60,710 nucleotides of DNA, from assembly GCA_049999805.1 (NCBI GenBank), contig JBNGIO010006294.1, positions 1 through 60,710 on the forward strand, written 5' to 3'. Of this stretch, positions 1,103-53,678 are shown one piece after another. The DNA is from Folioceros fuciformis. Lineage: Eukaryota. Below the pieces are notes generated by a model. It saw nothing but the letters and a program-made list of their open reading frames with translations. It had not been told where the DNA came from and did not search any database. Positions within the stretch are counted from its first letter, which is position 1, and each line of letters opens with the position of its first letter. Made by a program: the position numbers and the translations under genes.

Positions 1103-3661
1103 TCAATGCCGGTCGTTACATGAACAGGACCCATCTCGGAATCGATGAACTCGGTGTGCGTCTCTCACGATGATCTCTCGATTCTCAAGGTGTGACATTA
1201 CCTTGGTGCTGCTGTGGCAATCGTTGCACATGCGAAGGCTTTTGGTCACCAGTAGAGGGGTACCATCCGGTGTGTTCAGCAGACCGTATGCCAAGGCTAG
1301 TTTCTCTGCATGCCCACACAGAGCATCCTCCTTCTCCTTCTCAGACATTTCCTTCAAAACCAAGTCTGTTTGTGGTACATGGCCTCCTTCCTCTTTCACC
1401 CTCAAGTTTACACTGCACAGCTTGGAGAAAATGTCGGGGCTTTCTTCCCCTACTGTGAACTCGTGAACCTCGTCTTTCACTTCTATGCATGCCTTGGCAG
1501 GCTTCTTGACAGCGCCTGCTACCTTCCTCCAGGTTTCAATCCTCTCCACATCCTGCCACCTGCCTGCGTTGGCATATATGTTGCCCAGCAGGACGTAAGG
1601 GCTGGCATCACCAGCGTCCAGTTCTACAAGGCGGTCGAAGCATCGCCTTCCACGAGCAACATCGCCATGGCTTTTGCAGGCACTCAGCAAAGCCGTCCAG
1701 CCCACAACGTCGTTCACGAGCGAAGTAGTTTGCAGCATCTGTTCAGCATCATCCAGTTGGCCTGACCGGCCAAGAAGGTCCACCATGCAACTGTAGTGCC
1801 GCTCGGACGGTTCTAACCCGTGATCCTCAACCATCATCCTGAAAAACTGCTGGCCCTCACGCACGAGGCCGGCATGGCTGCATGCCACAAGGAGACAGAT
1901 AAAGGATGTCTCATCTGGCTTAATACCTTGCAGGAGCATCTGTTCGAAGCAGCTGATTGCCATTTCACCCTCATTGTGTTGAGCATACCCGTTGAGCAGG
2001 GCCGTCCATGTCACCAGATCCCTTGTCGGCAACCTGGCGAACACATCGCGGGCCTCCTCCAAGTTTCCACATTTTCCGTACATGTCGACCAGGCAGTTCC
2101 CAATGGCTGCAACACCCTCAAGGCCTTGTTCCCGAATCTGAGAGTGGAGCTCCTTCCCTAGCTGCAAGGCTCCCACACTGGCACAAGCTTGAAGCAGGCA
2201 CACAAATGTTACATGATTGGCTGGAGTGATGCCCTCCTTTCGCATACGGGTGTACATAGCCAACGCATCCCGACAAAACCCCTGCCTTGTGTATCCCGAG
2301 ATCATGGCAGTCCATGTCACCACATCTCTCTTGGGCAATCTGTCAAACACGCTACGAGCATCCTCCAAGCTCCCACACTTGGCATACAAATTCACCAAGC
2401 AGTTACCTAGGACTGTATCCGCTTCCATGCCTCTACTCCGAACCTGCAAGTGAAGCTGCTTCCCCTGCTGCAGCGCACCCACGCTGGCGCATGCTTGAAG
2501 AAGGCACACAAATGTAACCTGATCGGCTGGATGCATCCCCTCCTGTTGCATCCTTTCATACAAAGCCAGGGCTTCTCGCCCCAACCCACGTTGAGCATAT
2601 CCTGCAATCAGAGCAGTCCATGTCACAACGTCTCGTCTGGGCAAACTGTCAAACACTTTCCGAGCATCAGCCACGCTCCCGCATCTAGCATACATAGTCA
2701 CCAAACTGTTGCACACAAACATATCGGCCTGAACAGGACTCGCCTGGAGATCAGCGTGAACCTCTTGGCCCGAATCCAGATCCTCTGCCGAAGCACAGGC
2801 CTTGAGAACTGCTGCAAACACATGGTTATTCGGCTCCACACTCGATTCTCGCATTCGCCGGTAAAGCTCCAGTGCCTGCATGGGCTGCCCGTGCTTGGCA
2901 TGTGCCAGTATGATGGACGACCACATATGGACAGTGGGCGCACTCACTTTGGTGAAGACCTGCATTGCATCCTCCAATTTGCCATACGAGGCATACATCC
3001 CGATCATGTGGGTCGCCAAGAATGCATTTCCCTCGTACCCACATTTGACAACAAAGGCATGAGCTTGCCTTCCACACACAAGATTTCCCTCTGCCATGCA
3101 CCTCTTCAGCACAAGATACAGCACACCCAGAGTCTCACCCGCACCACTTCCTTGCTGCACCAGAAGGTGCAACGCTTCAAGAGCATCACTCAGCTCGGCC
3201 TCTTCACACCGACGCCTCAGAGCCGCAACCATGCATTTCCTCTCTTCACCACCATCTCCTGCACCGAAGACAGGAGGCTCCCTCATCCCAACATCCCACC
3301 TGGCCAGTTGGGGATCCACCCAGGCTGGTTTGTTCGGGCTGTTGAGCCACAGCGCTTCCTTGGAGATCTTGTGCCTGAAGTCGGGATGGCGGGGGCCTTT
3401 CTTCCCCGTCCGAATGTCCCACCACTCGGAGGGGTCCGAGAAGAGGTGCTGCCATAGAACCTCCTGCCTCCCTCTCCGATCAATCCCCGCATCAGTGCAC
3501 GAGCCCACGCAAGACTCGCTCCTTGGCTTCACTGGCTGGATTGGGTTGGCTGACAACATGTTAGGCAGCCATGGCTGGGTGGCCAACGTGCGGGCATCGG
3601 CAAGTGCCGGATCCGGCGGCTGCAGGGCCAACGCCAGCTGCGGCTGGCGTTGCTGCTGCAT
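1103..3661 (-). CDS. PLS-class PPR protein with N-terminal OSB-like PDF motif and C-terminal E1-E2-DYW:KP domain ending in DRH (candidate organellar U-to-C editing factor)
   Basis: Intronless ORF with the first ATG at 3661. It has P/L/S triplets (DVVTWTALIAGY / VTFVCLLQACA / GNCLVDMYGKCG), KKPAKACIEV, ALCGHAEKLA and CNDCH, and ends CSCNDRH. Confidence 0.95.
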   Translation of the reverse strand: MQQQRQPQLALALQPPDPALADARTLATQPWLPNMLSANPIQPVKPRSESCVGSCTDAGIDRRGRQEVLWQHLFSDPSEWWDIRTGKKGPRHPDFRHKISKEALWLNSPNKPAWVDPQLARWDVGMREPPVFGAGDGGEERKCMVAALRRRCEEAELSDALEALHLLVQQGSGAGETLGVLYLVLKRCMAEGNLVCGRQAHAFVVKCGYEGNAFLATHMIGMYASYGKLEDAMQVFTKVSAPTVHMWSSIILAHAKHGQPMQALELYRRMRESSVEPNNHVFAAVLKACASAEDLDSGQEVHADLQASPVQADMFVCNSLVTMYARCGSVADARKVFDSLPRRDVVTWTALIAGYAQRGLGREALALYERMQQEGMHPADQVTFVCLLQACASVGALQQGKQLHLQVRSRGMEADTVLGNCLVNLYAKCGSLEDARSVFDRLPKRDVVTWTAMISGYTRQGFCRDALAMYTRMRKEGITPANHVTFVCLLQACASVGALQLGKELHSQIREQGLEGVAAIGNCLVDMYGKCGNLEEARDVFARLPTRDLVTWTALLNGYAQHNEGEMAISCFEQMLLQGIKPDETSFICLLVACSHAGLVREGQQFFRMMVEDHGLEPSERHYSCMVDLLGRSGQLDDAEQMLQTTSLVNDVVGWTALLSACKSHGDVARGRRCFDRLVELDAGDASPYVLLGNIYANAGRWQDVERIETWRKVAGAVKKPAKACIEVKDEVHEFTVGEESPDIFSKLCSVNLRVKEEGGHVPQTDLVLKEMSEKEKEDALCGHAEKLALAYGLLNTPDGTPLLVTKSLRMCNDCHSSTKVMSHLENREIIVRDAHRVHRFRDGSCSCNDRH

Positions 3662-23010: not shown

Positions 23011-23412
23011 ACTCCTCCAACATTGTAAACGGAACCTCCTTCTTAATCACCTGACCTTCGCGGCCCGAAGCCAACCACGAGCATGCGTTGAAGAGTGTTG
23101 CAGGTGCCCATGCTACAATGCTCTGGGGCTGGTTCGGGTCCAGATGCAGGTGTAAGGTGAATGTGCCAACACTACTTCCTCCAGATGCGGTCCAGCGTCC
23201 AGCCTTGCTGTTCTGCTGCAATTTCGCACGTCCTGAGCACAGCCTAATTGCCCGCTGTTGGGAAGGTTTGAAGGCACTGCCGTGCACCGTCCAGGTCAGT
23301 CCACCAACCCTGGCCTGGCTGCTGTGGAGGCTGTGGGTTAGGGCCCGTAGCGAGGACGCGTTTGTCAGCGGCCTAGTCTTGTCCATGTACCTCCCACAGC
23401 TGTTCCTGGACT

Positions 23413-26400
23413 ATGGCCACAGCGAAGGCTAAAGCTTCTTTTCTTCTCTTTGCACGTCATTGGCTTTCAGGCAACACGAAACAAAGATGTGTGCGTACAG
23501 GGATCCCACGAGGAGCTCATTCTAACCTGATCTTAGGGAGTCGACCCCTGGCAAGCAAAGCCTCCAGGTGCAGAAGCGTTAGGAGCCCAGCTATTCCACT
23601 TCTGGAAACCTGTGTGGGTAGGGACAGGTTTACCAGCGATGGTCGTTGCCAGGAGCAGGAGCACCTGTGGCAACAATTCTTTCTGGAGCCTACCATGTGG
23701 TGGGACTACAGACGAGATAAGAAGAGCTTCCGTTCTCCTGACTTCCGGCGAAAGGGGTCCGGCGAGGAGCTGTGCTTAAGCGACGTATTCAAGCCAGCTT
23801 GGGTTGATGAGCAGCTCATTTCCTTGGATGTGCAGATGGGCCATTGTGCCAGTGGAAGGAGTCCAGCACTTCCACGTCCAATGGGACATGATGCCAGTGT
23901 AAGGAGCCCAGCAGTTCCAATTCGGATGGGCCGTGGTGCCTTTCCTTCCCAGTCCAGGTCTCAGGATAGGCCTGAACTTGGGAGGCGTGCAAGATCGAAA
24001 ATGGGGATTACTGCTGTTACCGTGGGCACGTTATGTCAACAGGGGAAGCTTTCTGAGGCCGTTGGAGCCCTGGAATCTCTGACGCTTGTAGACTCTCCCA
24101 TTTCTCAGTCAGCATTGTACACTGTACTGAAATTGTGTACAGCCAAGAAGGATCTGGTTGTGGGACGACGAGTTCATGACCTCATTATCAAACTTGGGTA
24201 TGAGTCGAGTACTTTCTTGGGGAACCATATCTTGCGCATGTATGCAGTTGGAGGTAGGCTAGAGGAGGCCTTGGATGTGCTTACCAGGGTGAGCAAACCG
24301 GATGCCTTCATGTGGTCTTCCATAATATCCGCATATGCTAAGCAAGGGAAACCTAATGAAGCCATACAACTGTATCATGAGATGCGGGGGTCAGGAGTTA
24401 AGGCGGATGCTCACGTCTTTGTAGCTGCCCTTCAGGCTTGTGCATTTGCTGCCGACCTTGAATTTGGCAGACAAGTGCACCACGATGTGGTGAGGAGTGG
24501 CATTCCTACTAACTTGATTGTTGGCAACTGTCTGGTGGACATGTATGCAAAATGTGGCCGACTGAAAGATGCACGCCAGGTTTTTGACAGCATGGCAACG
24601 AAGAATGTGGTTACATGGACCGCCCTGATATCTGGGTACGCTAAATGTGGTCAACTGGAAGAAGCACGCCAGATATTTGACAGGATGAACAGAAAGGATG
24701 TGGTAACGTGGAATGCTCTGATATCTGCTTATGCACAGCAAGGACGTGGCCACGAGGTCCTTCTTCTGTATGGACAAATGGAGCAAGAGGGCCTGATTGC
24801 AGCGGATCACGTTACTTTTTCTTGCCTTCTGAATGCCTGTGCTAGCACTGGTGCCTTACAGAAGGGCAGGCAGCTGCACTGTCAGATTGTGAGAAAAGGA
24901 CTGCTCGATGATGTAGTGTTGGGTACCTGCCTTGTGGACATGTATGCAAAATGTGGTGAACTGGAAGATGCGCGCCAGGTTTTTGACAGCATGCCCACCA
25001 AGAACGTGGTGACATGGACCGCTCTGATCGCTGGGTATGATAGGCAAGGACTCGGTCAAGAGGCGCTTGAGGTGTATGGACAAATGGAGGAGGGGGGGCT
25101 TATTTTGGGTGATGATGCGTCTTTTGGTTGTCTTCTCAAGGCCTGTGGAAGTACTGGCGCCTTGCAAAAGGGCAGGCAGCTGCACTCACAGATGGTCAAA
25201 AGAGGGTTGCTGGATAATGTTGTGTTGGGCAACTGCCTGGTAGACATGTATGCAAAATGTGGTGAACTGGATGATGCTCGCCAGGTTTTTAACGGCATGG
25301 CGACAAAGAATGTGGTGACATGGAATGCCCTGTTAGCGGGATATGTACAGCAAGGACTCGGCCAAGAGGCGCTTGTTGTGTATGAACAAATGGAGCAGGA
25401 GGGCCTGATTGTGTCTGACGATGTGACTTTTGCTTGCCTTTTGAAAGCCTGTGGAAGCAGTGGTGCATTACAGAAGGGCAGGCAGCTGCACTCGCAGATT
25501 GTGGAAAAAGGACTTGTGGGTAACTTAGTGTTGGGCAACTGCCTGGTTGACATGTATGCCAAATGTGGTGAACTGGAAGATGCTCGCCAGGCCTTCGATA
25601 GCATGAACACAAAGGATGTGGTGACATGGAATGCCCTGATATCTGGGTATGGTACTTGTGATGATAGTCAGAAAGCACTATCTCGTTTTGAGGAGATGTT
25701 AGGTGCCGGTATTCAGCCCAATGATGTTACTTTTACTTGCCTTTTAGTGGCATGCGGTCACGGAGGCCTGGTCCTAGAGGGTCGCAAGCACTTCGATTCT
25801 ATGGCAGAACAGTATGGCATCAAACCTAGTATTGAGCATTGCAACTGTATGATTGATCTCCTTGGGCGTGCTGGCCATTTAGACGAGGCAGAGAAGATGC
25901 TACTACAATGTGACGGCCGAAGTAATGTTGTTGGGTTGACGTCTTTGTTGAACTCGTGTAAAGGTCACGGGGACATAGAGAGGGCAAGGTGGTGTTTCGA
26001 AAGCCTTGTGAGGCTGGACCCCCAGCAGGCGTCCGCATATGTGCTCATGGCCAATGCCTATGCGGATGCAGGCAGGTGGAGCGATGTAGACAGGATTGAG
26101 ACTCAGAGAAGGGTAGCGGGAGCTAACAAGAAACCTGCATTGGCGACCATTGAGGTGAACAAGCAGGTACATAAATTTATGGTGGGAGAAAAGAGAGAGG
26201 ATATTGCTCTTAAGGTAGAGACCACGAATGCACGGCTGAAGCTGGAAGGGGGCCACGTCCCTCATACGCAGTTGGTATTGAAGCCACTGTTTGAGAAGGA
26301 AAAGGAAGATGCCCTTTGTGGGCATGCTGAAAAGCTAGCTCTGGCGTTTGGTCTGTTGAACACTCCGAGTGGGACACCTCTGGTGGTAACGAAGAATCTA

Positions 26401-26532
26401 CGTATGTGCAGTGACTGCCACAGCTCCACGGAGATCATGTCAAGGCTTGAACGAAGGGACATTGTGGTAAGGGATGGGTACCGAGTGCACCGATTCGCAG
26501 CTGGTTGCTGCAGTTGTCAAGGTCGACCATGA
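23413..26532 (+). CDS. PLS-class PPR with N-terminal PDF motif and DYW:KP domain ending in GRP (tandem copy 1)
   Basis: 1039-aa intronless ORF with an R/S-rich transit-like N-terminus, P/L/S/SS motifs, KKPALATIEV, GHAEKLA, CSDCH and CSCQGRP. Confidence 0.96.
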   Translation: MATAKAKASFLLFARHWLSGNTKQRCVRTGIPRGAHSNLILGSRPLASKASRCRSVRSPAIPLLETCVGRDRFTSDGRCQEQEHLWQQFFLEPTMWWDYRRDKKSFRSPDFRRKGSGEELCLSDVFKPAWVDEQLISLDVQMGHCASGRSPALPRPMGHDASVRSPAVPIRMGRGAFPSQSRSQDRPELGRRARSKMGITAVTVGTLCQQGKLSEAVGALESLTLVDSPISQSALYTVLKLCTAKKDLVVGRRVHDLIIKLGYESSTFLGNHILRMYAVGGRLEEALDVLTRVSKPDAFMWSSIISAYAKQGKPNEAIQLYHEMRGSGVKADAHVFVAALQACAFAADLEFGRQVHHDVVRSGIPTNLIVGNCLVDMYAKCGRLKDARQVFDSMATKNVVTWTALISGYAKCGQLEEARQIFDRMNRKDVVTWNALISAYAQQGRGHEVLLLYGQMEQEGLIAADHVTFSCLLNACASTGALQKGRQLHCQIVRKGLLDDVVLGTCLVDMYAKCGELEDARQVFDSMPTKNVVTWTALIAGYDRQGLGQEALEVYGQMEEGGLILGDDASFGCLLKACGSTGALQKGRQLHSQMVKRGLLDNVVLGNCLVDMYAKCGELDDARQVFNGMATKNVVTWNALLAGYVQQGLGQEALVVYEQMEQEGLIVSDDVTFACLLKACGSSGALQKGRQLHSQIVEKGLVGNLVLGNCLVDMYAKCGELEDARQAFDSMNTKDVVTWNALISGYGTCDDSQKALSRFEEMLGAGIQPNDVTFTCLLVACGHGGLVLEGRKHFDSMAEQYGIKPSIEHCNCMIDLLGRAGHLDEAEKMLLQCDGRSNVVGLTSLLNSCKGHGDIERARWCFESLVRLDPQQASAYVLMANAYADAGRWSDVDRIETQRRVAGANKKPALATIEVNKQVHKFMVGEKREDIALKVETTNARLKLEGGHVPHTQLVLKPLFEKEKEDALCGHAEKLALAFGLLNTPSGTPLVVTKNLRMCSDCHSSTEIMSRLERRDIVVRDGYRVHRFAAGCCSCQGRP

Positions 26533-27540
26533 GTAACGTTGGACTACGGAGAGCGCCAACGAATTAGAATTTTCTCTCTCAGATGTACATAAGACGGTGT
26601 ACTTGATATGGGAAAAGCCTGATTCAGCAAGGACAACCAAGGAAGACCCTAAAGTCAAGGTGCAAAGGAGCAAAGCTACCTGAAGTTATCTATTGCCGCC
26701 AAAACGTGGTGTGCAGGAAGAACGAAAACCTTGTAGATCAGAAAAGAAGAGGAAGAAGCGTCATCTGTTGTTGCCTCGTTGCCATCAAGGGGCCCTTGGA
26801 AGAGCAATCGAAACTCCCTGACCGAACTGAGATACGAAATAGCAAGCAAGCACCGCATGAGAAGGATAATAACAACCTTTCGTTAATTCTACGTAGGGTC
26901 ACGTGGAACCCTTGTTACGCGATCTGTGGTTAGTTACAGCAGGAAACTCCCACATGAACGGGTTTGTTAGGGCTGCAGTTCTAGACCAGGTCCCACCCTA
27001 ACCCTCTCTGTTGGAGGTCGAGAGGATTCAGTACTGAGCTCGGACGTATCCCCTGCGACAGAGTCGGAAACGCGAGGTGTTTGGACGAGTTCATGTTTGG
27101 CAAATCTTCGGACAAGACACAAGTGACTGTTTCTTGTTCACGCCCTATCAAGTTGTTCAACTTGGTAGAACCTCCTTCTTCAGCTGATCTCAGCAGCCCG
27201 AAATCAACCATGAGCATGCGTGGAAGAGGGCTGCAGGTGCCGATGACACAATTGTTCGGTGCAGGTTCACGTCCAGGTGTAGGTGTCAATGTCCAGTTAA
27301 GGTGCTGGTGTCAATACTACATCCTTCAGATGCAGTCCAGCCTTTCTATTATGCAGCAATTTCCCACGTCCGTAGCAAAACCCAATGCCCGCTGTTCAGC
27401 AGCTTTGTAGGCATAACCATTCTCCGTCCAGGTCAGTCCACCAACCCTGGCCTGGCTGCTGCGGGTTAAGGCGCGTAACGAGGACGCTTTTGTTAGCGGC
27501 CTCGTCTTGTCCATGCACTTCCGACAGCGCTTATTGAACG

Positions 27541-30500
27541 ATGGCCAACGCGCAGGCTAAGGCTTCTTTCCTTCTCCTCGCACGTTATTGGCTTTCAGGT
27601 GGAACCCGACGAATTGGTGGGTGTACAGGGATTCTACGAGGAGGTCATTCGAATCTGGGTTTATGGAGTCGATCCCTGGCCAGCAAAGCCGCCAGGGGCA
27701 GTAGTGTAAGGAGTCCAGCACTTCCAGTTCTGGAAAGGTATGTAGGTAGGGACGGGTTGTCCAGCGATGGTCGTTGCCAGGAGCAGGAGCACTTGTGGCA
27801 ACAATTTTTCCTGGAGCCTACCATGTGGTGGGACTATAGACGAGATAAGAAGAGCTTCCGGTCTCCTGACTTCCGGCGGAAGGGGTCTGGCGAGGAGCTA
27901 TGCTTAAACGATGTGTTTAAGCCAGCTTGGGTTGATGAGCAGCTCATTTCCTTGGATGTGCAGATGGGCCACGGTGCCAGTGGATGGAGTCCAGAACTTC
28001 CACGTCCAATGGGTCATGATGCCAGAGCAAGGAGCCCAGCAATCTCGAATCGGATGAGCCGTGGTGCCTCTCCTTCCCAGTCCAGGTCTCAGGACAAACC
28101 TGCACCTGGGAGGCGTGCTAGATCAGAAATGGGCGTCGTGACCGCTGTTCCCGTGAGCACGTTATGTCAACAAGGGAAACTTTCTGAGGCCGTTGGAGCC
28201 CTGCAATCTCTGGCTGACACAGACTATCCCATTTCTCCGTCTCTGTTCTACACCGTACTGAAATTGTGTACAGCCAAGAAGGATTTGGTCGCGGGGCGAC
28301 TAGTTCATAATCTCGTTGTCAAACATGGATATGAGTCGAGTGCATTCTTGGGGAACCATATCTTACGAATGTATGCTGTTGGAGGTAGGCTAGAGGAGGC
28401 CTTGGATGTGCTCACCAGGGTTGGTGAGCCGGATGCCTTCATGTGGTCTTCCATAATATCCGCATACGCTAAGCAAGGAAAACCTAATGAGGCCATTCAA
28501 CTATATCATGAGATGCGGAGGTCAGGAGCTAAGGCGGATGCTCACGTCTTTGTAGCTGCCCTTCAGGCTTGTGCATTTGCTGCTGACTTGGAATCTGGCA
28601 GACAAGTGCACCACGATGTGGTGAGGAGTGGCATTCCCATTAACTTGATTACTGGCAACTGCCTGGTGGACATGTATGCGAAATGTGGTCAACTGAAAGA
28701 TGCACGCCAGGTTTTTGACAGCATGGCCACAAAGGATGTGGTGACATGGACTTCCTTGGTATCTGGGTATGCAAGAAGTGGTGAACTGGAAGCTGCACGT
28801 CAAGTTTTTGACAGCATGAACAGAAAGGATGTGGTGACATGGACTGCCCTGATATCTGGTTATGCACAGCAAGGACGTGGCCACGAGGTGCTTCTTCTGT
28901 ATGGACAAATGGAGCAAGAGGGCCTGATTGTGGCTGACCGTTTTACTTTCGCAGGCCTTTTGAAGGCCTGTGGGATTACTGGTGCGTTGCAGAAGGGCAG
29001 GCAGCTGCATTCACAGATTGTGGAAAAAGGACTGCTTGATGACGTAGTGTTAGGCAACTGTCTGGTGGACATGTATGCAAAATGTGGTGAATTGAAAGAC
29101 GCACGCCAAGTGTTTGACAGCTTGTCCGCAAAAGACGTTGTGACGTGGACTTCCCTGATTGCTGGGTACTCTCAGCGAGGTCTCGGTCAAGAAGCGCTTG
29201 TTGTCTATGGACAAATGGAGGAGGGGGGTCTTATTTTGGCCGACGATTTTACTTTCTCATGCCTTCTGAAGGCCTGTGGAAGTACTGGTGCCTTGCAAAA
29301 GGGCAGGCAGCTGCACTCACAGATTGTCAATAGAGGACTGCTGGATAATGTTGTGTTAGGCAACTGTCTGGTAGACATGTATGCGAAATGTGGTGAACTG
29401 GATGATGCTCGCCAGGTTTTTAATAGCTTGGCTACGAAGAATTTAGTGACATGGAATGCCCTGTTAGCTGGATATGTACAGCAAGGACTCGGCCAAGAGG
29501 CGCTTGTTGTGTATGAACAAATGGAGCAGGAGGGCCTGTTTGTATCTGACGATGTGACTTTTGCTTGCCTTTTGAAAGCCTGTGGAAGCAGTGGTGCATT
29601 ACAGAAGGGCAGGCAGCTTCACTCACAGATTGTGGAGAAAGGACTGATGGATAACGTAGTGTTGGGCAACTGCCTGGTTGACATGTATGCCAAGTGTGGC
29701 GAATTGAAAGGTGCACGCGAGGCTTTTGACAGCATGCACACAAAGGATGTGGTGACATGGAATGCACTGATATCTGGGCATGGTACTTGTGATGACGGTT
29801 TCACAGCACTATCTTGTTTTGAGGAGATGTTAGGTGCCGGTATTCAGCCCAATGATGTTACTTTTACTTGCCTTTTAGTAGCATGCGGTCATGGGGGACT
29901 GGTCCATGAGGGTCGCAAGCACTTTAATTCCATGGTGGAACTGCATGGCATCAAACCTAGTGTTGAGCACTGCAATTGTATGATCGACCTTCTTGGGCGT
30001 GCTGGTCATTTAGATGAGGCACAGAAGATGCTATTGTTATGTGATGGCCAAAGTAACGTTGTCGGGTTGACGTCTTTGTTGAATGCCTGTAAAAGTTATG
30101 GCGACATAGAGATGGCGCGGTGGTGTTTTGAAAACATTGTAAAGCTGGACCCGCAGGAGGCGTCTGCATATGTGCTCATGGCCAATGCCTATGCGGATGC
30201 AGGTAGGTGGAGCGATGTAGACAGGATTGAAACACAGAGAAGGGTAGCCGGAGCTTACAAGAAGCCTGCATTGGCGACCATTGAGGTGAACAAGCAGGTC
30301 CATAAATTTTTGGTGGGAGAGAGGAGAGAGGATATTGCCCTTAAGGTAGAGAGCACGAATACTCGTCTCAAGCAGGAAGGAGGCCACGTACCTCATACAC
30401 AGTTGGTTTTAAAGCCACTTTTTGAGAAAGAAAAAGAAGATGCGCTTTGTGGGCACGCTGAGAAGCTAGCTCTGGCGTTTGGTCTGTTGAACACTCCAAG

Positions 30501-30663
30501 TGGGACACCTCTGGTGGTTACAAAGAATTTACGCATGTGCAGTGACTGCCACAGTTCTACGGAGATCATGTCAAGGGTTGAACAAAGGGACATTGTGGTA
30601 AGGGATGGGTACCGAGTGCATCGATTCGCAGGTGGTTGCTGCAGTTGTGAGGGTCGGCCGTGA
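27541..30663 (+). CDS. PLS-class PPR with N-terminal PDF motif and DYW:KP domain ending in GRP (tandem copy 2)
   Basis: 1040-aa ORF collinear with copy 1, ending CSCEGRP. Confidence 0.96.
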   Translation: MANAQAKASFLLLARYWLSGGTRRIGGCTGILRGGHSNLGLWSRSLASKAARGSSVRSPALPVLERYVGRDGLSSDGRCQEQEHLWQQFFLEPTMWWDYRRDKKSFRSPDFRRKGSGEELCLNDVFKPAWVDEQLISLDVQMGHGASGWSPELPRPMGHDARARSPAISNRMSRGASPSQSRSQDKPAPGRRARSEMGVVTAVPVSTLCQQGKLSEAVGALQSLADTDYPISPSLFYTVLKLCTAKKDLVAGRLVHNLVVKHGYESSAFLGNHILRMYAVGGRLEEALDVLTRVGEPDAFMWSSIISAYAKQGKPNEAIQLYHEMRRSGAKADAHVFVAALQACAFAADLESGRQVHHDVVRSGIPINLITGNCLVDMYAKCGQLKDARQVFDSMATKDVVTWTSLVSGYARSGELEAARQVFDSMNRKDVVTWTALISGYAQQGRGHEVLLLYGQMEQEGLIVADRFTFAGLLKACGITGALQKGRQLHSQIVEKGLLDDVVLGNCLVDMYAKCGELKDARQVFDSLSAKDVVTWTSLIAGYSQRGLGQEALVVYGQMEEGGLILADDFTFSCLLKACGSTGALQKGRQLHSQIVNRGLLDNVVLGNCLVDMYAKCGELDDARQVFNSLATKNLVTWNALLAGYVQQGLGQEALVVYEQMEQEGLFVSDDVTFACLLKACGSSGALQKGRQLHSQIVEKGLMDNVVLGNCLVDMYAKCGELKGAREAFDSMHTKDVVTWNALISGHGTCDDGFTALSCFEEMLGAGIQPNDVTFTCLLVACGHGGLVHEGRKHFNSMVELHGIKPSVEHCNCMIDLLGRAGHLDEAQKMLLLCDGQSNVVGLTSLLNACKSYGDIEMARWCFENIVKLDPQEASAYVLMANAYADAGRWSDVDRIETQRRVAGAYKKPALATIEVNKQVHKFLVGERREDIALKVESTNTRLKQEGGHVPHTQLVLKPLFEKEKEDALCGHAEKLALAFGLLNTPSGTPLVVTKNLRMCSDCHSSTEIMSRVEQRDIVVRDGYRVHRFAGGCCSCEGRP

Positions 30664-41036: not shown

Positions 41037-43910
41037 TCAGCCTTGCTTCTCATCCCCAACCAGAAAGCTATGCACCAGTCCATCGTTGTCCGTCCACCAA
41101 CTCTGACCAGGCTGCTTCATTGCCCTCATTCTTGTCCTCCTCGCCTGAATTTCCTCCGCCTTCTCCCACATCTGGGCACCAACATATATGTTGGACATCA
41201 AAACATGTGCTGCGACGTCTTCCTCCTGCATCTTCACTGCTTCGCTAAAGGCAGTGCATCCCACCTCCACGTTGCTCCACTTCTGACAAGCACCCAACAA
41301 GGTATGCCAAACTGCAGCATCAGGCCACATGGGCATTGATCTTACTAAAGCTAGGGCTTCATCCAGCTGTCCTGCTCGCCCCAGAAGATCCACCATGCAT
41401 GTGTAGTGCTCCTCTGTGGGAGTGATGCCATACTCTCTGCTCATAGCCTTAAAGTCCTCCCATCCTCTCTCCACTAGACCCACATGACTGCATACAGTGA
41501 GCACACTAAGGAATGTGACGCCATCTGGCTGCATGCCATCCTGTTTCATGTTGTGGAACAAGTTGAAGACCACGTCAGTCTCTCCTTGACAACTGTAGCC
41601 CGCGATCAGCGCATTCCAGGTGACGAGGTTTTTCTCAGGAAGCGCATCGAACACCTGCTGCGCATCAACCATGCTTCCAGACTTTCCGTACATGTTAATC
41701 AAACTGCCAGCCACGAACAGATTGGCTTGAAGGCCTTGTTCTACAATCTGTGCATGTAGTTGCTTTCCCAGACACAAAGCTGCCACATTTGCACATGCCT
41801 GCAGAAGACACACAAACGTCATCGAATCAGGTACAGACATGCCTTCTTCAAGCATGGCACTATATACACGAAGGGCTTCCTGACCCATGCCCTGCTTCGA
41901 ATATCCTGCTATCAGGGCAGTCCACGTTACAAGATCCTTGTGTACAAGCCTGTCAAACATAATTTGAGCATCTTCCATGCTGCCGCACTTTGCATACATA
42001 TTCACCAAACTGCTGGCCACAAACACATCAGCTTCATGCTCTCCTCCTCTTATCTGTGTGTAAAGCTGATGCCCAAACTCCAGAGCTGGGGTGCCCACAC
42101 TTGCACATGCCTGCAGCAGGGACACAAATGTGACTCCGTTGGGTACAACGATGTCCTGTTCTTGCATAGCACGGTAGAGACGCAGAGCTTCCTGCCCCAT
42201 GCCCTGCTGGGAATAACCTGCTATCATGGCGTTCCACGTCACCACGTGTTTTTGGCCGAGGCCATCGAACACCCTCTGAGCATCCTCCAAGCTGCCACAC
42301 TTGGCGTACATGTTGACCAAACTGCTAGCTACAAACGTATCAACTTCAAGTCCCTGTTTTCCAATTTGTGCATGAAGCTGCTTCCCCTTCTCCAAGGCAG
42401 GGGCCCCAACGCCTGCACATGCCTGCAGGAGGCACACCAACGCCGTGGAATCCAGTACAACAGTGCCTTCCTTTTGCATGGCACTGTGAAGACGAAGGGC
42501 TTCCTGCCCCTTGCCTTGCTGGGAGTACCCAGCAATCAAGGTAGTCCAAGTAACCACATCTTTTTGACCGAGTTTGTCAAACACTCTCTGCGCATCTTCC
42601 AAGCTGCCACACTGTGCATACATGTTCACCAAACTGTTGGCTACAAAACCATGGGCTTCACATCCTAGTTCTCTGATGTGCGCATGAAGCAGCTTCCCCT
42701 TCTCCAACGCTGAGTTCCCCACACTCGCACATGCCTGCAGGAGGCACACAAATGTCACAGAATCAGGTACATGGATGCCTTCTTCCAGCATGGCACTGTA
42801 GAGACGAAGGGCTTCCCTGCCCAAGCCCTTTTGGGAATACCCGGCTATCATGGTGGTCCACGTGATCACATCTTTGTGACCAAGGCCGTCAAAGACTCTC
42901 TGAGCCTCTTCCAAGCTGCCACACTTTGCATACATGTCCACCAAGCAGCTGCAAACGAACAAATTAGGCTGCACATCACTCGCTAACACATCAGCATGCA
43001 CCTTCTGCCCAGTTTTCAAGTCTGATCGTCTTGCACAAGCCTGAAGGGCTGATACGAAAACATGACCATCTGGCTTCACACCTGACCTGCGCATCCTATG
43101 ATACAATCCTATCGCCTTCATGTCTTGTCCATGTTTGATATGCGCAGAGATGATGCCAGACCACGTGAAAGAATCCGGTTCGGAAATAGCTTCAAATGCA
43201 TCCATTGCGTCTTGCAGCCGGCCATGAGAAGCATACATTCGAAGAATGTGGAAGCCCAGAAACGTGTTAGAATGGTAGCCCTTTGCCACCGTGCAGGCGT
43301 GGACGCGGCGACCCAGAACAAGATCCTTGTTTACCACACATTTCTTCAGGACATGATACAAGAGAGATTTGGAAATGGTACGGTATGTCTGAACCAGAAC
43401 CTCCAAGGCCTCAACAGCCTCAGTGAGACGACCCTCGTGACAAAGCTTGCTCACGATTTCTGCCGTCACGCTACTACTGTCACCTGCAGGCCTACGAGAG
43501 TCAGGACCATCCCGTAAACTCCTGTCGGAGCCACAACCACCCATCCCCATGTCCTGATCAGCAGGGTGCACATCCATCCAACCCGGCTTGTAGAAGTCGT
43601 TCAACCAGAGGGCCTCCTGGGAGTGCTTAAGCCGGATATTCGGCAAACGCACACTCTCCTTCTTCTTCAGCCTGTTCCCACGCCCAAATGTTGGGTCCCC
43701 AACAACTTGTCGCCCACAACCCTTGCTGGTTGCTGTCTCTCCAACCAAACGAGCTCTTGGCTGACTTGCAAGGGTGCTGCACCTCCCGACTTGGTTGTGC
43801 GCCAACGGTGGGTTCTTCCAAGTCTGCCGAGCTGTAGCTCTTCCCACAACACTCGTTGCCCCAGCAGCCATAGCTCGCGGGAGCGCGTGCGGAGCTATGG
43901 CAAATTGCAT
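41037..43910 (-). CDS. PLS-class PPR protein, E1-E2-E+ with WW-type PG box and no intact DYW
   Basis: 957-aa intronless ORF with a long PLS array, ending KQPGQSWWTDNDGLVHSFLVGDEKQG*. Confidence 0.93.
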   Translation of the reverse strand: MQFAIAPHALPRAMAAGATSVVGRATARQTWKNPPLAHNQVGRCSTLASQPRARLVGETATSKGCGRQVVGDPTFGRGNRLKKKESVRLPNIRLKHSQEALWLNDFYKPGWMDVHPADQDMGMGGCGSDRSLRDGPDSRRPAGDSSSVTAEIVSKLCHEGRLTEAVEALEVLVQTYRTISKSLLYHVLKKCVVNKDLVLGRRVHACTVAKGYHSNTFLGFHILRMYASHGRLQDAMDAFEAISEPDSFTWSGIISAHIKHGQDMKAIGLYHRMRRSGVKPDGHVFVSALQACARRSDLKTGQKVHADVLASDVQPNLFVCSCLVDMYAKCGSLEEAQRVFDGLGHKDVITWTTMIAGYSQKGLGREALRLYSAMLEEGIHVPDSVTFVCLLQACASVGNSALEKGKLLHAHIRELGCEAHGFVANSLVNMYAQCGSLEDAQRVFDKLGQKDVVTWTTLIAGYSQQGKGQEALRLHSAMQKEGTVVLDSTALVCLLQACAGVGAPALEKGKQLHAQIGKQGLEVDTFVASSLVNMYAKCGSLEDAQRVFDGLGQKHVVTWNAMIAGYSQQGMGQEALRLYRAMQEQDIVVPNGVTFVSLLQACASVGTPALEFGHQLYTQIRGGEHEADVFVASSLVNMYAKCGSMEDAQIMFDRLVHKDLVTWTALIAGYSKQGMGQEALRVYSAMLEEGMSVPDSMTFVCLLQACANVAALCLGKQLHAQIVEQGLQANLFVAGSLINMYGKSGSMVDAQQVFDALPEKNLVTWNALIAGYSCQGETDVVFNLFHNMKQDGMQPDGVTFLSVLTVCSHVGLVERGWEDFKAMSREYGITPTEEHYTCMVDLLGRAGQLDEALALVRSMPMWPDAAVWHTLLGACQKWSNVEVGCTAFSEAVKMQEEDVAAHVLMSNIYVGAQMWEKAEEIQARRTRMRAMKQPGQSWWTDNDGLVHSFLVGDEKQG

Positions 43911-47166: not shown

Positions 47167-50003
47167 ATGCTGGGAGATGTTGCCGTTTGGTGCTGGGGGC
47201 AGCGACGCGCAGGCTGGAGGCTATGCGTGCACGTGATGTTGCTGGCCTTGATGGCCATAGGGGACGTGGAGGGGGCGTCTCCGGCGGAGGCAAGCGCGCT
47301 GCTCCAAGTGCAGGCCGCTCTCCACGATCCGCAGGGGGAAATGCGGTCGTGGGTGCAGGGTTCGGATCCCTGCGCGTCGTGGTGGTGGGGAGTGACCTGC
47401 AGCAGCAATGCGGTGGTGGGCTTGGACCTCAGCAATGCGGGGCTGTCGGGTAGCATCTCCCCCGCCATCGGGATGCTGTCCAGCCTGCAGAGCCTGAACC
47501 TGAGCAGCAACCGGCTCACGGGGGGCTTGCCCCCGGAGCTGGGCAACCTCACACAACTCTCCACCCTGAGGCTGGAGGAGAACGGACTCTCGGGAGCCAT
47601 ACCCCAGCAGCTGGCCAACCTCGCCCGCCTCACCAACCTTTTTCTGTCCCAGAACAGCTTCACCGGCCCCATCCCGCCCGACCTCCTCAACATCTCCTCC
47701 CTGGTGGAGGTGGAGTTGTGCAGCAACGGGCTCACTGGCGAGCTGCCCGCCGCGGTGGGATCGCTGCCCAACCTCAGCATTCTGGCCGTGTTCGGGAACG
47801 CGCTCACGGGGAGTTTGCCGCGGTCCTTCCGCTCGCCCGCTCTGTCGCGGCTGCTGGCCTTCGACAACCCGAAGCTGGGCGGCGTCATCCCCGGCGAGCT
47901 GTGCCCGGGGGGACACTCGCTCACGATGCTGGCGCTTTTCAACACCAGCGTGGCGGGGGCCATCCCCACCGACCTCGCCCACTGCACCTCGCTGCAGCGC
48001 CTCCGGATCGCAACCGGCTCCAAACTCGACGGGAACCTCCCCAGCTTCTGCCTGGAACCACAGCCGGACTTGAATTACGTGGAGCTCAGTGGCAACCGGC
48101 TCGTCGGCGGCATCCCTCCCAGCTTCGGGAGCTGCCCAGCGCTGCAAACGTTGAAGCTGGATGGCAACCAGCTGGTCGGGCCGCTTCCTGAGGAGCTGGG
48201 GAAGGCGACCAACCTCACGCTTTTGAACCTCTCTGGGAACCAACTCACCGGCAGCATTCCCCCTCAGCTCGGGGCTCTGTCTTCGCTTTCCAGCCTGGAG
48301 TTATCCGGTAACAAGCTCTCGGGGCCGGTGCCGCAGGAGCTCTTCACTGGCCTCTCCTCGCTGCAGACTCTCCACCTGAGTGACAACCAGTTGCAAGGGG
48401 AGCTGCCTGCATCCATCTCCGGGCTTAAGAGCGTGCAGCATTTGGACCTGGGGGGGAACAACTTGTCAGGAAGCATTCCCCCTGAGCTCGGGACCCTTGT
48501 TACCCTAATGTATGGGCTCAATCTGAGCCACAATGCGTTCAACGGAACCATCCCTGCCTCGCTGGGGAGTCTCGCCAAGCTGCAGAGTCTGGATTTGTCC
48601 TACAACAATCTGTCGGGCCGGATTCCAGCATCGCTGGGCGGCCTGCTAGCCTTGTCCTTCCTCAACCTCTCCTACAACCCCGGGCTCTCGGGCCCCATCC
48701 CAAACTCCCCGACATTCAACAAGTTCTCCCGATCTTCGTTTTTGGGGAATCCGGGCCTCTGCGGTTCCGTGCTTTCCGACTGCGCCGGGGACAGCGACGG
48801 CATCAGCAACAGCAGCAGCAGAAGAAGGAGCAAGGTTAACACTGGGGTGTTGGTCGGAGCCATAGTTGCCGTGGCTGTGACATGTGTGGGACTGCTCCTG
48901 GCTGTGCGGATTGGCATTGGCGGTACGTGGTCACGTCGTGCCAAGGGCCCGGGTCTTCTCCCGGATGAGTATCGGAAGTTCACATTCCAGGAGGTCATGG
49001 TCGCTACCAACAACCTGAGTCCCACGAACCTCATCGGGCAGGGAGGGTACGGCCAGGTGTACAAGGGTCTGCTCAACTCCGGGCAGGAGATTGCGGTGAA
49101 GACGATGAGAGTGAAGGAAGATGATCCCGGCCTGTTTCAGAGCTACTTGACGGAAATCCAGACGGCAGGTCAAGTCAGGCACCGTAACATCGTCAAGCTC
49201 TTAGGCTACTGCAAGCGCAAGCACACGGGGCTCATCGTTTACGAGTATCATCCCCTGGGTAGCCTGTGGGACGTCCTGTACAAGAGGAATGGGAATGGGA
49301 CGTACCTGGACTGGAAGATGCGCTACGAAATTGCCCTGGGCACTGCGCAAGCCATGTCTTACCTCCACTCGGACTGCGTCCCTCAGGTCCTGCACAGGGA
49401 TATCAACTGCAACAACATCCTTCTGGACCAGGACTTCGTTCCCCGTGTCACAGATTTCGGAGTTGCCAAGCTGGTGACTCCAGTGGACCGATCCACAGGG
49501 AAGATGGCAACCATGTCTGGCGTAACGGGATCTGTAGGCTACATTGCTCCTGGTGAGTCCCACCTACCTCCTGCTTGTGCTTTCTTTTCAAGGCTGTATA
49601 CACACGTACACAAGGGCTTGGGAATTTTGCTAAACCCCTGGCCTCGTGGTGGTGGTGTGTGGTCGCAGAGTACGCTTACACACTGAATGTGGGGGAGAAG
49701 AGTGATGTGTACAGCTATGGGGTTGTGCTGTTGGAGCTTCTCACGGGCAAGCAGCCTGTGGATCCCAGCTTCCAGGAGGGCATGGATTTGGTGCACTGGG
49801 TGAGGGACTGGCTCAAGAATAGTGACACCATCGATGTGGTGTTGGAGCAGGGGCTGCGAGAGGCCGTGCAATCCTCAGGGCCTGAAGCTCAGGAGATCGC
49901 CTCCACACTCAGCATAGCCATCCTGTGCACCAGTAACACCCCCTCTGACAGGCCCACCATGAAGAATGTAGAGAAGATGTTGCTCAAGCTCAAGGGGTGC
50001 TGA
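47167..50003 (+). CDS. Leucine-rich-repeat receptor-like kinase (subfamily XI-like), one intron 49553-49668
   Basis: Signal peptide, LRRNT (W..DPC..W.GVTC), plant LRRs, GNPGLCG, a TM helix and a kinase (GQGGYG, AVK, HRD, DFG, GYIAP|EYAYT, SDVYSYG). Confidence 0.95.
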
Positions 50004-51870: not shown

Positions 51871-53678
51871 TTAGGGGCTTTGAACTTTGAACTGCAAGTA
51901 CTGTGTCTCGTCCAAAACTGTGCTTCCCAGCCTTGTTGGTGGCCAGTACCTGACTACAGACCTCCCTAGAATATTCTTCACAGGAAGTGGACCCCTGCCA
52001 GGAAGTAACAGACTCAGTGCTTTTGTTGGTTACACCACAAGAAGAAAAAAACCATCACTGCAGAGCGAGTCCCACCAGACATGTGAGTCATAACTGTTGT
52101 TGCGGTTGTCACCCATCACGAACACGTAGCCACTGGGCACACTCTGCCACACCCTTGTTCAGGTTAGCACAGCATTGAGCTTAGCCTGGCTCGAAATTAG
52201 AAAGGGAGGAAGGCATCTTAGTCTAACCACGGGCCTCATGTTGTATGCTGGAGGCTCTGCAATGAAATCCTCCGTTTTGACAACTCCGTTCACCACAAGC
52301 TTTCCATCGTTCACCTGTTATTCACACCAAATAAATATTATTCTTCAAATCCAAGCAGAAGTGCTTTCCATCGTTCACCTGTTATTCACACCAAATAAAT
52401 ATTATTCTTCAAATCCAAGCAGAAGTGCTTGTTGAGCTCTCCGCGTGATGGGGCATACCTCCACCAGGTCCCCAGCTTTAGCAACAACTCTTTTGATGAA
52501 GACCTCACTTGCACTGTACCCTCTTGACTGAACAACAAAAATTTCGTCAGATGCCTAGAGCATAGCAAGCAGTTATAGCAGAAATCAGCTACGAATATCA
52601 CTTTCCACCTGTAGAACTTCGGGGGCCCTGAAAATGACGATATCATTGATGCTAGGACTTTTGAAATAATAGGACACCTGAGGCACAGAGAATGAAGTCA
52701 GTCTCAGCAGAAACTTAAGCCCCGATGTCAGTTAGTTGCCTACCACAAGCTGGAATTGACAAGTTGTCGACTGAAGCTAACCTTTTCCGCAATTATGCGG
52801 TCACCAACATCAAATGTAGGATACATCGAGAGGGAAGGAATGAAGCGAGGCTCAGCAATAAACCATCTGAAGCAGAGAGAAATTGCAAAGACTGCCAATA
52901 CTGTCTTTCCATCTTCTGCAGTGAAACTCATCCAGTCAGGCAACCAACTTATCTTCTGGCCACCTGCTTTAGAGTCCGCTCCTGCCACCTCTCCACCTTG
53001 CTTCTGAGAGATGGTAACATTCTGTGTCATTCCACTACCACCACCATCACCACCTCCACCATCACCACCACCACCACCGTCCACTCCCCTGCTGTCATCT
53101 CCAGAAAGAGCACTGCAAACCATAAAATGCCTAGACTGTTTGGAGTACCATGGAGCTTGAATGAACTCATGGCAAGGCAGCCACTTGGTAAAACTAGAGG
53201 CCAAGTAGCCTGGCATCTCAGCAACCTGAAACCTCAAGAGCAGAGTATCAGACCTGGAGATCCCAGGACAACCCGACCGAACTCTCCTTCCTTGACGAGA
53301 AGTTTTATGACTTGGCACGAATGTAGAGCGTGAGAAATTCAAGGAACCGCTGCATAGGAAGCCCTTGCGTAAAGAACGTGCCCGAAGAGAGTCAGCTTCC
53401 GCAGGAGCTACACAGGGACGGGGTGAACAAAGAGAGTCTTCTGCGAGTTTTTCCTTTGTAGATCTGCCTAAAGCACTGCAACCTGCAATCCCGTGTAGAA
53501 CCGGTCCCGTTCGACACTTGACAGGAAACTGGAACAGTAGTCTCCTGCCACTGACCAGCTTGAGAGCAATGTCTTCCCTGAAAGCACTTTCCCTGGAGTA
53601 GTCTCCAAGAGCAAAACCAGGTACTGAATTCTTCACAGGCAGCAGCGCAAGTGGACTCATGATCACAAAGGTACCCAT
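51871..53678 (-). CDS. Plastid type I signal peptidase (thylakoidal processing peptidase, Plsp1-like; multi-exon)
   Basis: Exons give [62 protein letters not shown] and [19 protein letters not shown]. The start codon is uncertain. Confidence 0.9.
52299..52430. repeat. Perfect 64-bp tandem duplication spanning an intron-exon junction
   Basis: gctttccatcgttcacctg...ccaagcagaagt at 52299 and 52363, followed by gctt microhomology. Confidence 0.95.

Follow-up and report, generated by a model that had tools for sequence, protein, structure and literature searches.

Two tandem GRP-type editor genes of Folioceros fuciformis carry, after the transit peptide and before the PPR array, a fused, folded PDF domain derived from an OSB gene, as shown by homology, position and selection. 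The genes lie on contig JBNGIO010006294.1 (60,710 nucleotides; the window, that is, the whole stretch of DNA that was analysed), and the PDF module is fused to PPR editors in more than 100 genes of this genome.

Architecture of the tandem GRP genes and identity of the module

Paralog A (positions 23413..26532, + strand) is an intronless PLS-class PPR gene of 1039 aa and paralog B (27541..30663, +) a gene of 1040 aa with the same layout; both open reading frames end in GRP. The order in paralog A is transit peptide, PDF, linker, PPR array, E1/E2 and a DYW:KP domain. A basic, presequence-like stretch of 82 residues precedes the module, and residues 1-60 (23413..23592, +) contain 12 R/K and no D/E; by this composition the N-terminus is likely an organelle presequence of mitochondrial-like type. 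The modules occupy residues 83-139 of paralog A (23659..23829, +) and 27787..27957 (+) in paralog B, where the first-pass annotation had placed them, with exact translations and in frame within both open reading frames. A Pro/Ser/Arg-rich linker of ~65 aa (23830..24027, +) leads to the first PPR unit of the PLS array (24028..25782, +), in which the PPR code residues of the two paralogs differ in 5 of the 15 parsed motifs.

The DYW:KP domain (133 aa; 26128..26529, + in paralog A and 30259..30660, + in paralog B, ending in GRP) carries the KP box, HAE, CxxC, Lys88 and the terminal GRP in paralog A. The zinc site is HAE with CSDC, and the Lys falls at position 88 when counting starts from the K of KP, a numbering taken from excerpts of PMC11845758. 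With a PLS array, E1/E2 and a DYW domain with KP box, both paralogs belong to the DYW:KP editors. They fall inside the GRP clade (FastTree support 1.0), and among the sampled GRP genes paralog B is sister to paralog A (0.97). U-to-C editing by the pair is putative; the primary description of hornwort DYW:KP editors, with GRP and DRH subgroups, is reportedly that of Gerke et al. 2020. An upstream region of ~400 bp (23020..23412, +) was duplicated along with the gene (counterpart at ~27165-27540), which indicates tandem duplication at the DNA level. The contigs compared for expression were pile-ups of several paralogs, and those of run X1, with 0 differences over intergenic stretches, are probably DNA, possibly from the source sample, and were rejected as expression evidence.

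Its sequence identifies the module as a genuine PDF motif of the OSB kind. A profile built from 36 modules of the window and genome matched OSB3 of Cardamine (E-value 6e-45), Striga (3e-44), Cajanus and Amborella (4e-60), with pairwise identities of the module to OSB3 repeats of 35-50%. The ~50-aa OSB signature is present, with Pro-Asp-Phe and the W/D/R/K/LW/P-W positions, and the ten most conserved OSB positions are all kept (W4, W14, D16, R18, K21, P27-D28-F29, K32 and W48). The module is rich in aromatic residues (10 W/F/Y) and has a basic central loop; AlphaFold with an alignment predicted a confident compact fold (pLDDT 92), and a single-sequence run on residues 1-396 without an alignment gave pLDDT <50 for residues 1-198. 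The paralog pair has Cys at the Trp of the LW motif (Trp in 59/59 OSB modules and 62/70 hornwort modules) and Tyr for the Asn of WDNR (Asn in 86% of OSB modules), and in GRP modules a conserved His is often replaced by Arg, so nucleic-acid binding may be weakened or altered.

Other searches with the module returned no family from the Pfam library used (which lacks PF30937), no significant match among PDB sequences, no fold match above Z 2.9 or Foldseek match with E <= 0.001 (which has no bearing on whether the fold is new), no candidates in a word-based homolog search with paralog region 80-145, and no usable match among ESM Atlas features. In the ESM Atlas, the corresponding homologous stretch in a fern PPR is labelled PF30937, a family found there in three PPR clusters (127, 57 and 63 members) and one SSB/OSB cluster. 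This label is automatic: the architecture is visible in databases, and no description or test is implied.

Selection on the module

According to the first-pass annotation, the two modules differ at a single residue within diverged flanks and are under purifying selection, and both statements hold. Across the 57 aa, 12 of 171 nucleotides differ, one in each of 12 codons; 11 of these changes are synonymous and one is the S/N replacement. The conserved block extends slightly beyond the module, to residues ~76-144. Region-by-region Nei-Gojobori estimates between the paralogs gave a dS of 0.41 and a dN of 0.007 for the module (omega 0.02, far below 1), as against 0.34 and 0.19 for residues 1-82 (omega 0.57) and 0.25 and 0.13 for the fast-evolving linker (omega 0.51); the module differs from its flanks (Fisher P = 0.0004) and not from the DYW domain (P = 0.42). 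Omega is 0.20 in the PPR tract, 0.11 in E1/E2 and 0.08 in the DYW domain. When the 44 changed positions of residues 1-205 were shuffled, a 57-residue window with one change or fewer arose in 1 of 20,000 trials. Two other stretches, PPR residues ~636-700 and DYW residues ~942-1015, are equally conserved, so the constraint is like that on a folded domain and is not unique to the module.

The annotation had also raised gene conversion, and a recent event across the module is a highly improbable source of the likeness: a 53-nt identical run does lie at its 3' end, over codons 127-144 (the gene has seven such runs of 40 nt or more, this one included), but conversion over the module as a whole is rejected by the 11 synonymous differences among its 35 synonymous sites and a dS that is not depressed (0.41 versus a gene average of 0.37; P = 0.85 against the rest of the gene). 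Normal dS together with the low omega indicates purifying selection instead.

Constraint extends across the family. In 21/21 disjoint GRP pairs and 14/14 DRH pairs, pN was lower in the module than in the flanks; the set was limited to modules of at least 60 bits, a choice that favours such an outcome. Family-wide, module omega was 0.29 in GRP and 0.16 in DRH pairs (flanks 0.43-0.65), values similar to those of the RNA-binding PPR repeats.

Distribution of PDF-PPR fusions

The annotation's proposal of a family-level architecture, as opposed to a one-off fusion, is well borne out by the genome, where 115 of the 130 assessable GRP genes have an intact module (88%, the highest retention). Its further claim of a feature shared by DRH and GRP types stands as far as presence goes, but among the 64 DRH or other KP genes just 29 are intact, 5 are decayed and 30 lack the module. 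Nor is the module limited to these two types: it is absent from 6 of 6 canonical DYW genes, yet intact in 12 WW/E+ genes, which were picked for having it. Among the 22 WW genes sampled, 12 have neither a module nor a recognised remnant. Two such states occur in the window, an intact module at 3287..3466 (- strand; 55% identical to that of paralog A) in a DRH-type DYW:KP gene (1103-3661, -) and a decayed one (32 bits) at 43560..43721 (-) in a WW/E+ gene (41037-43910, -). All decay stages are present across GRP, DRH and WW genes, and a tree of C-terminal sequences mixes DRH genes that have the module with those that lack it. A hidden upstream exon was sought in 28 stretches (23 KP, 5 canonical; mostly ~2.3-2.7 kb, one of 0.6 kb) that took in 23 of the 30 module-less KP genes; positive controls were detected, and there was no protein match of at least 7 bits and no nhmmer match better than E 0.55.

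Outside hornworts, canonical PG/DYW PPRs (C-to-U type) carry the PDF in the mosses Ceratodon and Sphagnum and the clubmoss Diphasiastrum, a lycophyte; fern PPRs carry it too, and a lycophyte PPR and a fern-like PPR have as many as three copies. Given the canonical DYW PPRs and the WW/E+ genes, the module is no marker of U-to-C editors. Among the matches listed (the best 150 of 1,044 representatives), all named PDF-PPR fusions are from seedless plants. In a tree of PPR-borne and OSB modules (55 columns, 69 rows), GRP modules formed a clade (100/99) and hornwort and fern modules made up a group (93/93) that also took in one OSB row; the maximum-likelihood tree splits the PPR-borne modules, and a single clade of them is not rejected by the AU test (P = 0.27). 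A description of the fusion was not found in the open-access literature, a coverage that leaves out two key hornwort PPR papers. That the fusion recurs, in a hornwort genome as well as in mosses, a clubmoss and ferns, suggests that plant RNA editors have a helper module which has been overlooked.

Possible roles and relation to known systems

We consider it rather probable that the module sits next to the PPR array as an optional helper that binds single-stranded nucleic acid. Reviews, in the passages on AtOSB1, describe its PDF motif as sufficient for ssDNA binding and report binding for ssDNA, not RNA (PMC6963530, PMC6451138). By analogy with this OSB biochemistry, the PDF would bind single strands independently of sequence; the presequence would be cleaved after import, the PDF most likely staying on the mature editor via the ~65-aa flexible linker and raising efficiency with no part in catalysis. 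An efficiency role of this kind would explain both an unchanged PDF beside a diverging PPR code and frequent loss in the family. As to its substrate, the PDF could conceivably grip the transcript, or open it, on the 5' side of the PPR site; more speculatively, it might keep the editor attached to ssDNA of the nucleoid, or to the strand displaced where transcription takes place, leading to co-transcriptional editing.

Three observations count against a helper: the 30 non-GRP KP genes and 12 sampled WW genes without a module or recognised remnant, the Cys and Tyr at conserved OSB positions in the paralog pair, and the designer GRP-based KP2/KP3 proteins (Trx-His-PLS-DYW:KP constructs), which, in the portions of PMC9478123 that describe them, apparently lack a PDF and edit in E. 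coli.

It is unlikely that the PDF fold has lost nucleic-acid binding and instead docks editosome or nucleoid proteins (for example OSB, or E+ and DYW partners) or stabilises or solubilises the editor. The pair conserves the whole domain yet has substitutions (W to C, N to Y, H to R) where binding is likely to occur, which would fit such a role, as would intact modules on WW/E+ proteins that are truncated in their catalytic part; retention of the Trp in most hornwort modules and of the basic loop speaks against it, as does ssDNA binding being the sole PDF function reported in the review passages. A vestigial passenger, an ancient OSB-PPR fusion copied with retroposed PPR genes, weakly constrained (folding, aggregation avoidance) and randomly lost, would account for every decay stage and for the intermixed DRH genes, and retroposition drives PPR expansions (PMC13386178); it is improbable in view of the low omega in the pair and family-wide, the intact module in most GRP genes, and retention in up to three copies in lycophyte and fern-like PPRs. 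A cofactor specific to U-to-C editing, which would help complete reverse editing, for instance by releasing the Lys-RNA crosslink left unresolved by synthetic DYW:KP proteins, has very little likelihood: GRP genes do show the highest retention, the release step is still a question (PMC11332814) and designer KP proteins apparently lack the module, but the module is missing from about half of the DRH-type KP genes, no catalytic motif is evident, and such specificity is rejected by PDF on canonical editors of Ceratodon, Sphagnum and Diphasiastrum and on DYW-less WW/E+ genes.

For the helper reading, it is relevant that seedless plants are without MORF helpers (PMC13386178). PDF-PPR fusions might, on a doubtful but broader view, form an old built-in accessory system of organellar editors in these plants (hornworts, mosses, lycophytes and ferns), with an OSB-derived ssDNA-binding domain by which hundreds of editors are tied to the organellar nucleoid or to R-loops and edit co-transcriptionally; if so, DNA-maintenance and RNA-editing machineries would be linked and a part missing from synthetic U-to-C editors supplied. 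Editing-factor work, including the designer DYW:KP U-to-C tools as far as the cited portions describe them, takes the N-terminus as a disposable transit peptide, and at this end most GRP editors and many others carry a conserved domain of nucleic-acid-binding type. Should the PDF raise efficiency, localise editors to nucleoids or replace MORF/ORRM helpers, it would explain hyper-editing in seedless plants without MORFs, and a benefit to efficiency would make it a simple add-on for low-efficiency synthetic editors. Co-transcriptional editing and crosslink release become testable through the PDF.

OSB proteins (AtOSB1-4) combine an OB-fold with C-terminal PDF motifs and share with the PPR-borne copies a motif of ~55 aa, organelle targeting and possible tandem copies; in the PPR genes, by contrast, the PDF is N-terminal and joined to a PLS-PPR/E/DYW editor. 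The OB-fold family PF00436 was absent among the best 25 families for paralogs A and B (of 34 and 31), and genome-wide it had 3 matches, 0 of them in the window; the paralogs, in which no OB-fold was found, are PPR editors with a PDF and not OSBs. Hornwort PPR-borne copies are intronless, whereas in the genome's own OSB gene a 75-bp phase-0 GT-AG intron splits the PDF. With the hornwort DYW:KP editors treated in PMC9478123 the pair has in common the PLS array, E1/E2, KP box, HAE, CxxC, Lys88 equivalent and GRP terminus; the portions of that paper on these editors describe the PPR array and C-terminal domains alone, and in its text 'OSB' is absent and 'PDF' occurs just in file names. The main text of the survey PMC13386178 nowhere contains 'PDF', 'OSB' or 'SSB'. 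The RRM-PPR, MORF-PPR and RanBP2-PPR fusions of that survey likewise place an accessory nucleic-acid-binding or helper domain on a PPR editor, but they are rare, with single to few cases per lineage outside angiosperms, whereas the PDF fusion occurs in over 100 genes of one genome.

Selection on a PDF module in tandem GRP genes

The window is nuclear plant DNA, and the PPR classes in it (GRP, DRH and WW/E+) indicate a hornwort, judging by the class distributions given in PMC9478123 and PMC13386178. The tandem DYW:KP-type genes of this pair, paralog A (23413-26532, forward strand) and paralog B (27541-30663, forward strand), are both intronless and encode PLS-PPR/E/DYW products with the GRP C-terminal end. 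They originated by a tandem DNA duplication that also copied ~400 bp upstream, and are sisters among the sampled GRP genes (tree support 0.97). The first-pass annotation had described a 57-codon module (residues 83-139; 23659-23829 and 27787-27957) as conserved while its flanks drift, and this description was exact: of the 12 codons that separate A from B, 11 differ synonymously and one carries an S/N replacement. Comparison of the paralogs revealed an omega of 0.02 for the module; the N-terminal flank has 0.57, the linker 0.51, the PPR tract 0.20 and the DYW domain 0.08 (Fisher test, module versus flanks P = 0.0004, module versus DYW P = 0.42; permutation in residues 1-205, allowing for choice of the best window, 1 in 20,000). 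That the likeness instead reflects gene conversion is extremely improbable and was rejected, because dS was not depressed in the module (0.41 versus 0.37 for the whole gene) and its synonymous rate did not differ from that elsewhere in the gene (P = 0.85); the purifying selection proposed earlier is thus upheld. Separately, the last PPR triplets (~25340-25750 versus 29470-29880) share three identical runs of 64-74 nt, with low dS (0.11-0.17) in two windows, and local gene conversion is possible there, outside the module.

The comparison was extended to disjoint paralog pairs drawn from genes whose single module scores 60 bits or more (42 GRP, 29 DRH), an intact-only choice that inflates the module-flank contrast; module pN was lower than flank pN in 21 of 21 GRP and 14 of 14 DRH pairs. 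Pooled module omega was 0.29 (GRP) and 0.16 (DRH, with synonymous sites near saturation), close to that of the first PPR repeats (0.24 and 0.18), and flank values were higher (0.43-0.65).

Extent in the Folioceros genome

All 150 candidates scored in a genome-wide module search (out of 432) were significant, 118 of them in frames of at least 600 aa. A census of GRP genes began with 150 GRP-like DYW matches of 521 candidates, leaving out 13 in frames under 600 aa; 95 had a module match in the same frame by coordinates, and inspection of the remaining 42 sequences revealed 20 intact modules, 13 decayed ones scoring 10-60 bits (the highest of 2,140 shuffled null scores was 6.9), 2 DNA traces only and 7 loci kept outside the count because they met the end of a contig, contained N gaps or had a truncated frame. 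The module is therefore intact in 115 of 130 assessable GRP genes. Among 64 non-GRP KP genes, mostly DRH and drawn from the 68 best PF14432 rows (66 used), with a few lower-ranking rows and neighbours added, it was intact in 29, decayed in 5 and absent from 30; the upstream DNA of 23 of these 30 contained no module. Bearers and non-bearers intermingle on the C-terminal tree, which argues for repeated loss. None of six canonical DYW genes of the same genome, including one left open by the end of its contig, had a module. Of 22 WW/E+ genes picked by C-terminus, none had an intact module, 5 had a decayed one and 5 more had DNA remnants (E ≤ 0.002); 14 further loci picked for module matches (12 WW/E+, 2 DRH) carry intact modules of 82-99 bits. 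The window itself holds a WW/E+ gene without the DYW catalytic domain (41037-43910, reverse strand), with a decayed module at ~43560-43721. The module is thus widespread but optional and independent of DYW class; the family-level architecture noted for DRH and GRP stands, with a wider scope.

Some GRP genes carry tandemly duplicated modules (loci L021, L029, L009, L015, L136 and L145), one copy often decaying. The GRP N-termini at L011, L012, L017, L018, L023 and L030 are near-identical, and several of these loci have short frames or lie where a contig ends; the group may have amplified recently, or may reflect alleles or a collapsed assembly. Two further ORFs of the window read by eye as an LRR receptor-like kinase (47167-49686, forward strand) and as the first exon of a plastid type I signal peptidase (52740-53678, reverse strand).

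Identity and origin of the module

The module matched no family in local Pfam, and a profile of 36 modules retrieved 1,044 representatives (E ≤ 0.001), with OSB3 of Cardamine, Striga, Cajanus and Amborella among the named matches (pairwise identity 35-50% for the repeats that scored best). A Pfam scan of the 149 new representatives within the best 150 of the 1,044 found an SSB domain in many and PPRs in 7. Paralogs A and B retain the OSB positions of highest conservation, except for the usual Asn to Tyr and a Trp to Cys at a site that is Trp in 59 of 59 OSB and 62 of 70 hornwort modules. AlphaFold with an alignment gave a compact helix-strand-strand-helix model (pLDDT 92), for which a PDB comparison yielded no clear match; the ESM Atlas label PF30937 falls on the homologous stretch in four clusters (three PPR, one SSB). 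The PDF model of residues 30-100 of database protein P0021 aligned with two clusters of hypothetical phage proteins, each 187 aa long, at TM 0.64-0.66, below the naming bar, and by this modelled likeness a phage relative of the fold is possible. PDF repeats also occur in green-algal proteins of Sanguina and Astrephomene (P0047, with no SSB match; P0023 and P0029, with no precomputed Pfam family), and are annotated beside a kinesin motor domain in P0081 of Coptis, probably a gene-model merge.

The genome's own OSB gene (L188 5040-6140, reverse strand; contig C6415) comprises OB-fold exons and a single PDF, which a 75-bp phase-0 GT-AG intron interrupts. Two moss-type PPR-PDF proteins from the databases, P0193 and P0030, have at this point in the motif an insertion that opens with Val and closes with Gln, which we infer to be read-through of the OSB intron; if so, it would mean DNA-level capture of the PDF from an OSB gene and intron loss in retroposed hornwort copies. 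On a poorly resolved module tree, a single origin was neither recovered nor rejected (AU test, p-AU 0.27; 69 of 147 modules used).

Predicted role and distribution

The module is an OSB-type PDF, in frame and under purifying selection. Because residues 1-60 resemble a presequence and the module begins at 83, it would stay on the editor after import. The OSB PDF binds single-stranded DNA (reviews PMC6963530 and PMC6451138), and by analogy the PPR-borne copy may bind single-stranded nucleic acid. Its constancy while code residues differ in 5 of 15 PPR motifs between A and B fits a target-independent role, and catalysis appears not to depend on it, as designer GRP proteins with a stated Trx-His-PLS-KP layout are active editors in E. 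coli (PMC9478123). We regard a nucleic-acid-binding helper as the probable role, tentatively acting on RNA or, slightly less plausibly, on nucleoid single-stranded DNA. A protein scaffold is an unlikely reading, and a vestige unlikelier still; release of the U-to-C crosslink, a step left as an open question in PMC11332814, is very improbable.

Beyond hornworts, Diphasiastrum has PDF-PPR fusions (19 clusters plus one more) that hold between one and three modules and in several cases end in canonical PG...DYW, and others occur in Adiantum, Ceratopteris, Pteridium, Ceratodon and Sphagnum, the latter two with canonical DYW; no named seed-plant PPR fusion was found among the best 150 of the 1,044 representatives. 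E-type PDF carriers from ferns group with the hornwort KP clade in the C-terminal tree (FastTree 0.98). Listings and abstract openings of the open-access literature gave no description of the fusion, and term searches of PMC8330923 and bioRxiv 10.64898/2026.10.24.761589 yielded no passages. Gerke et al. 2020 and Gutmann et al. 2020 may mention the domain, and novelty could also be affected by the domain tables in PMC13386178 and PMC13393729 and by the PMC9478123 alignments. Taken together, the finding is real and the original inference holds beyond DRH and GRP; the PDF-PPR fusion is apparently an undescribed, new combination of known parts, though visible in current databases.
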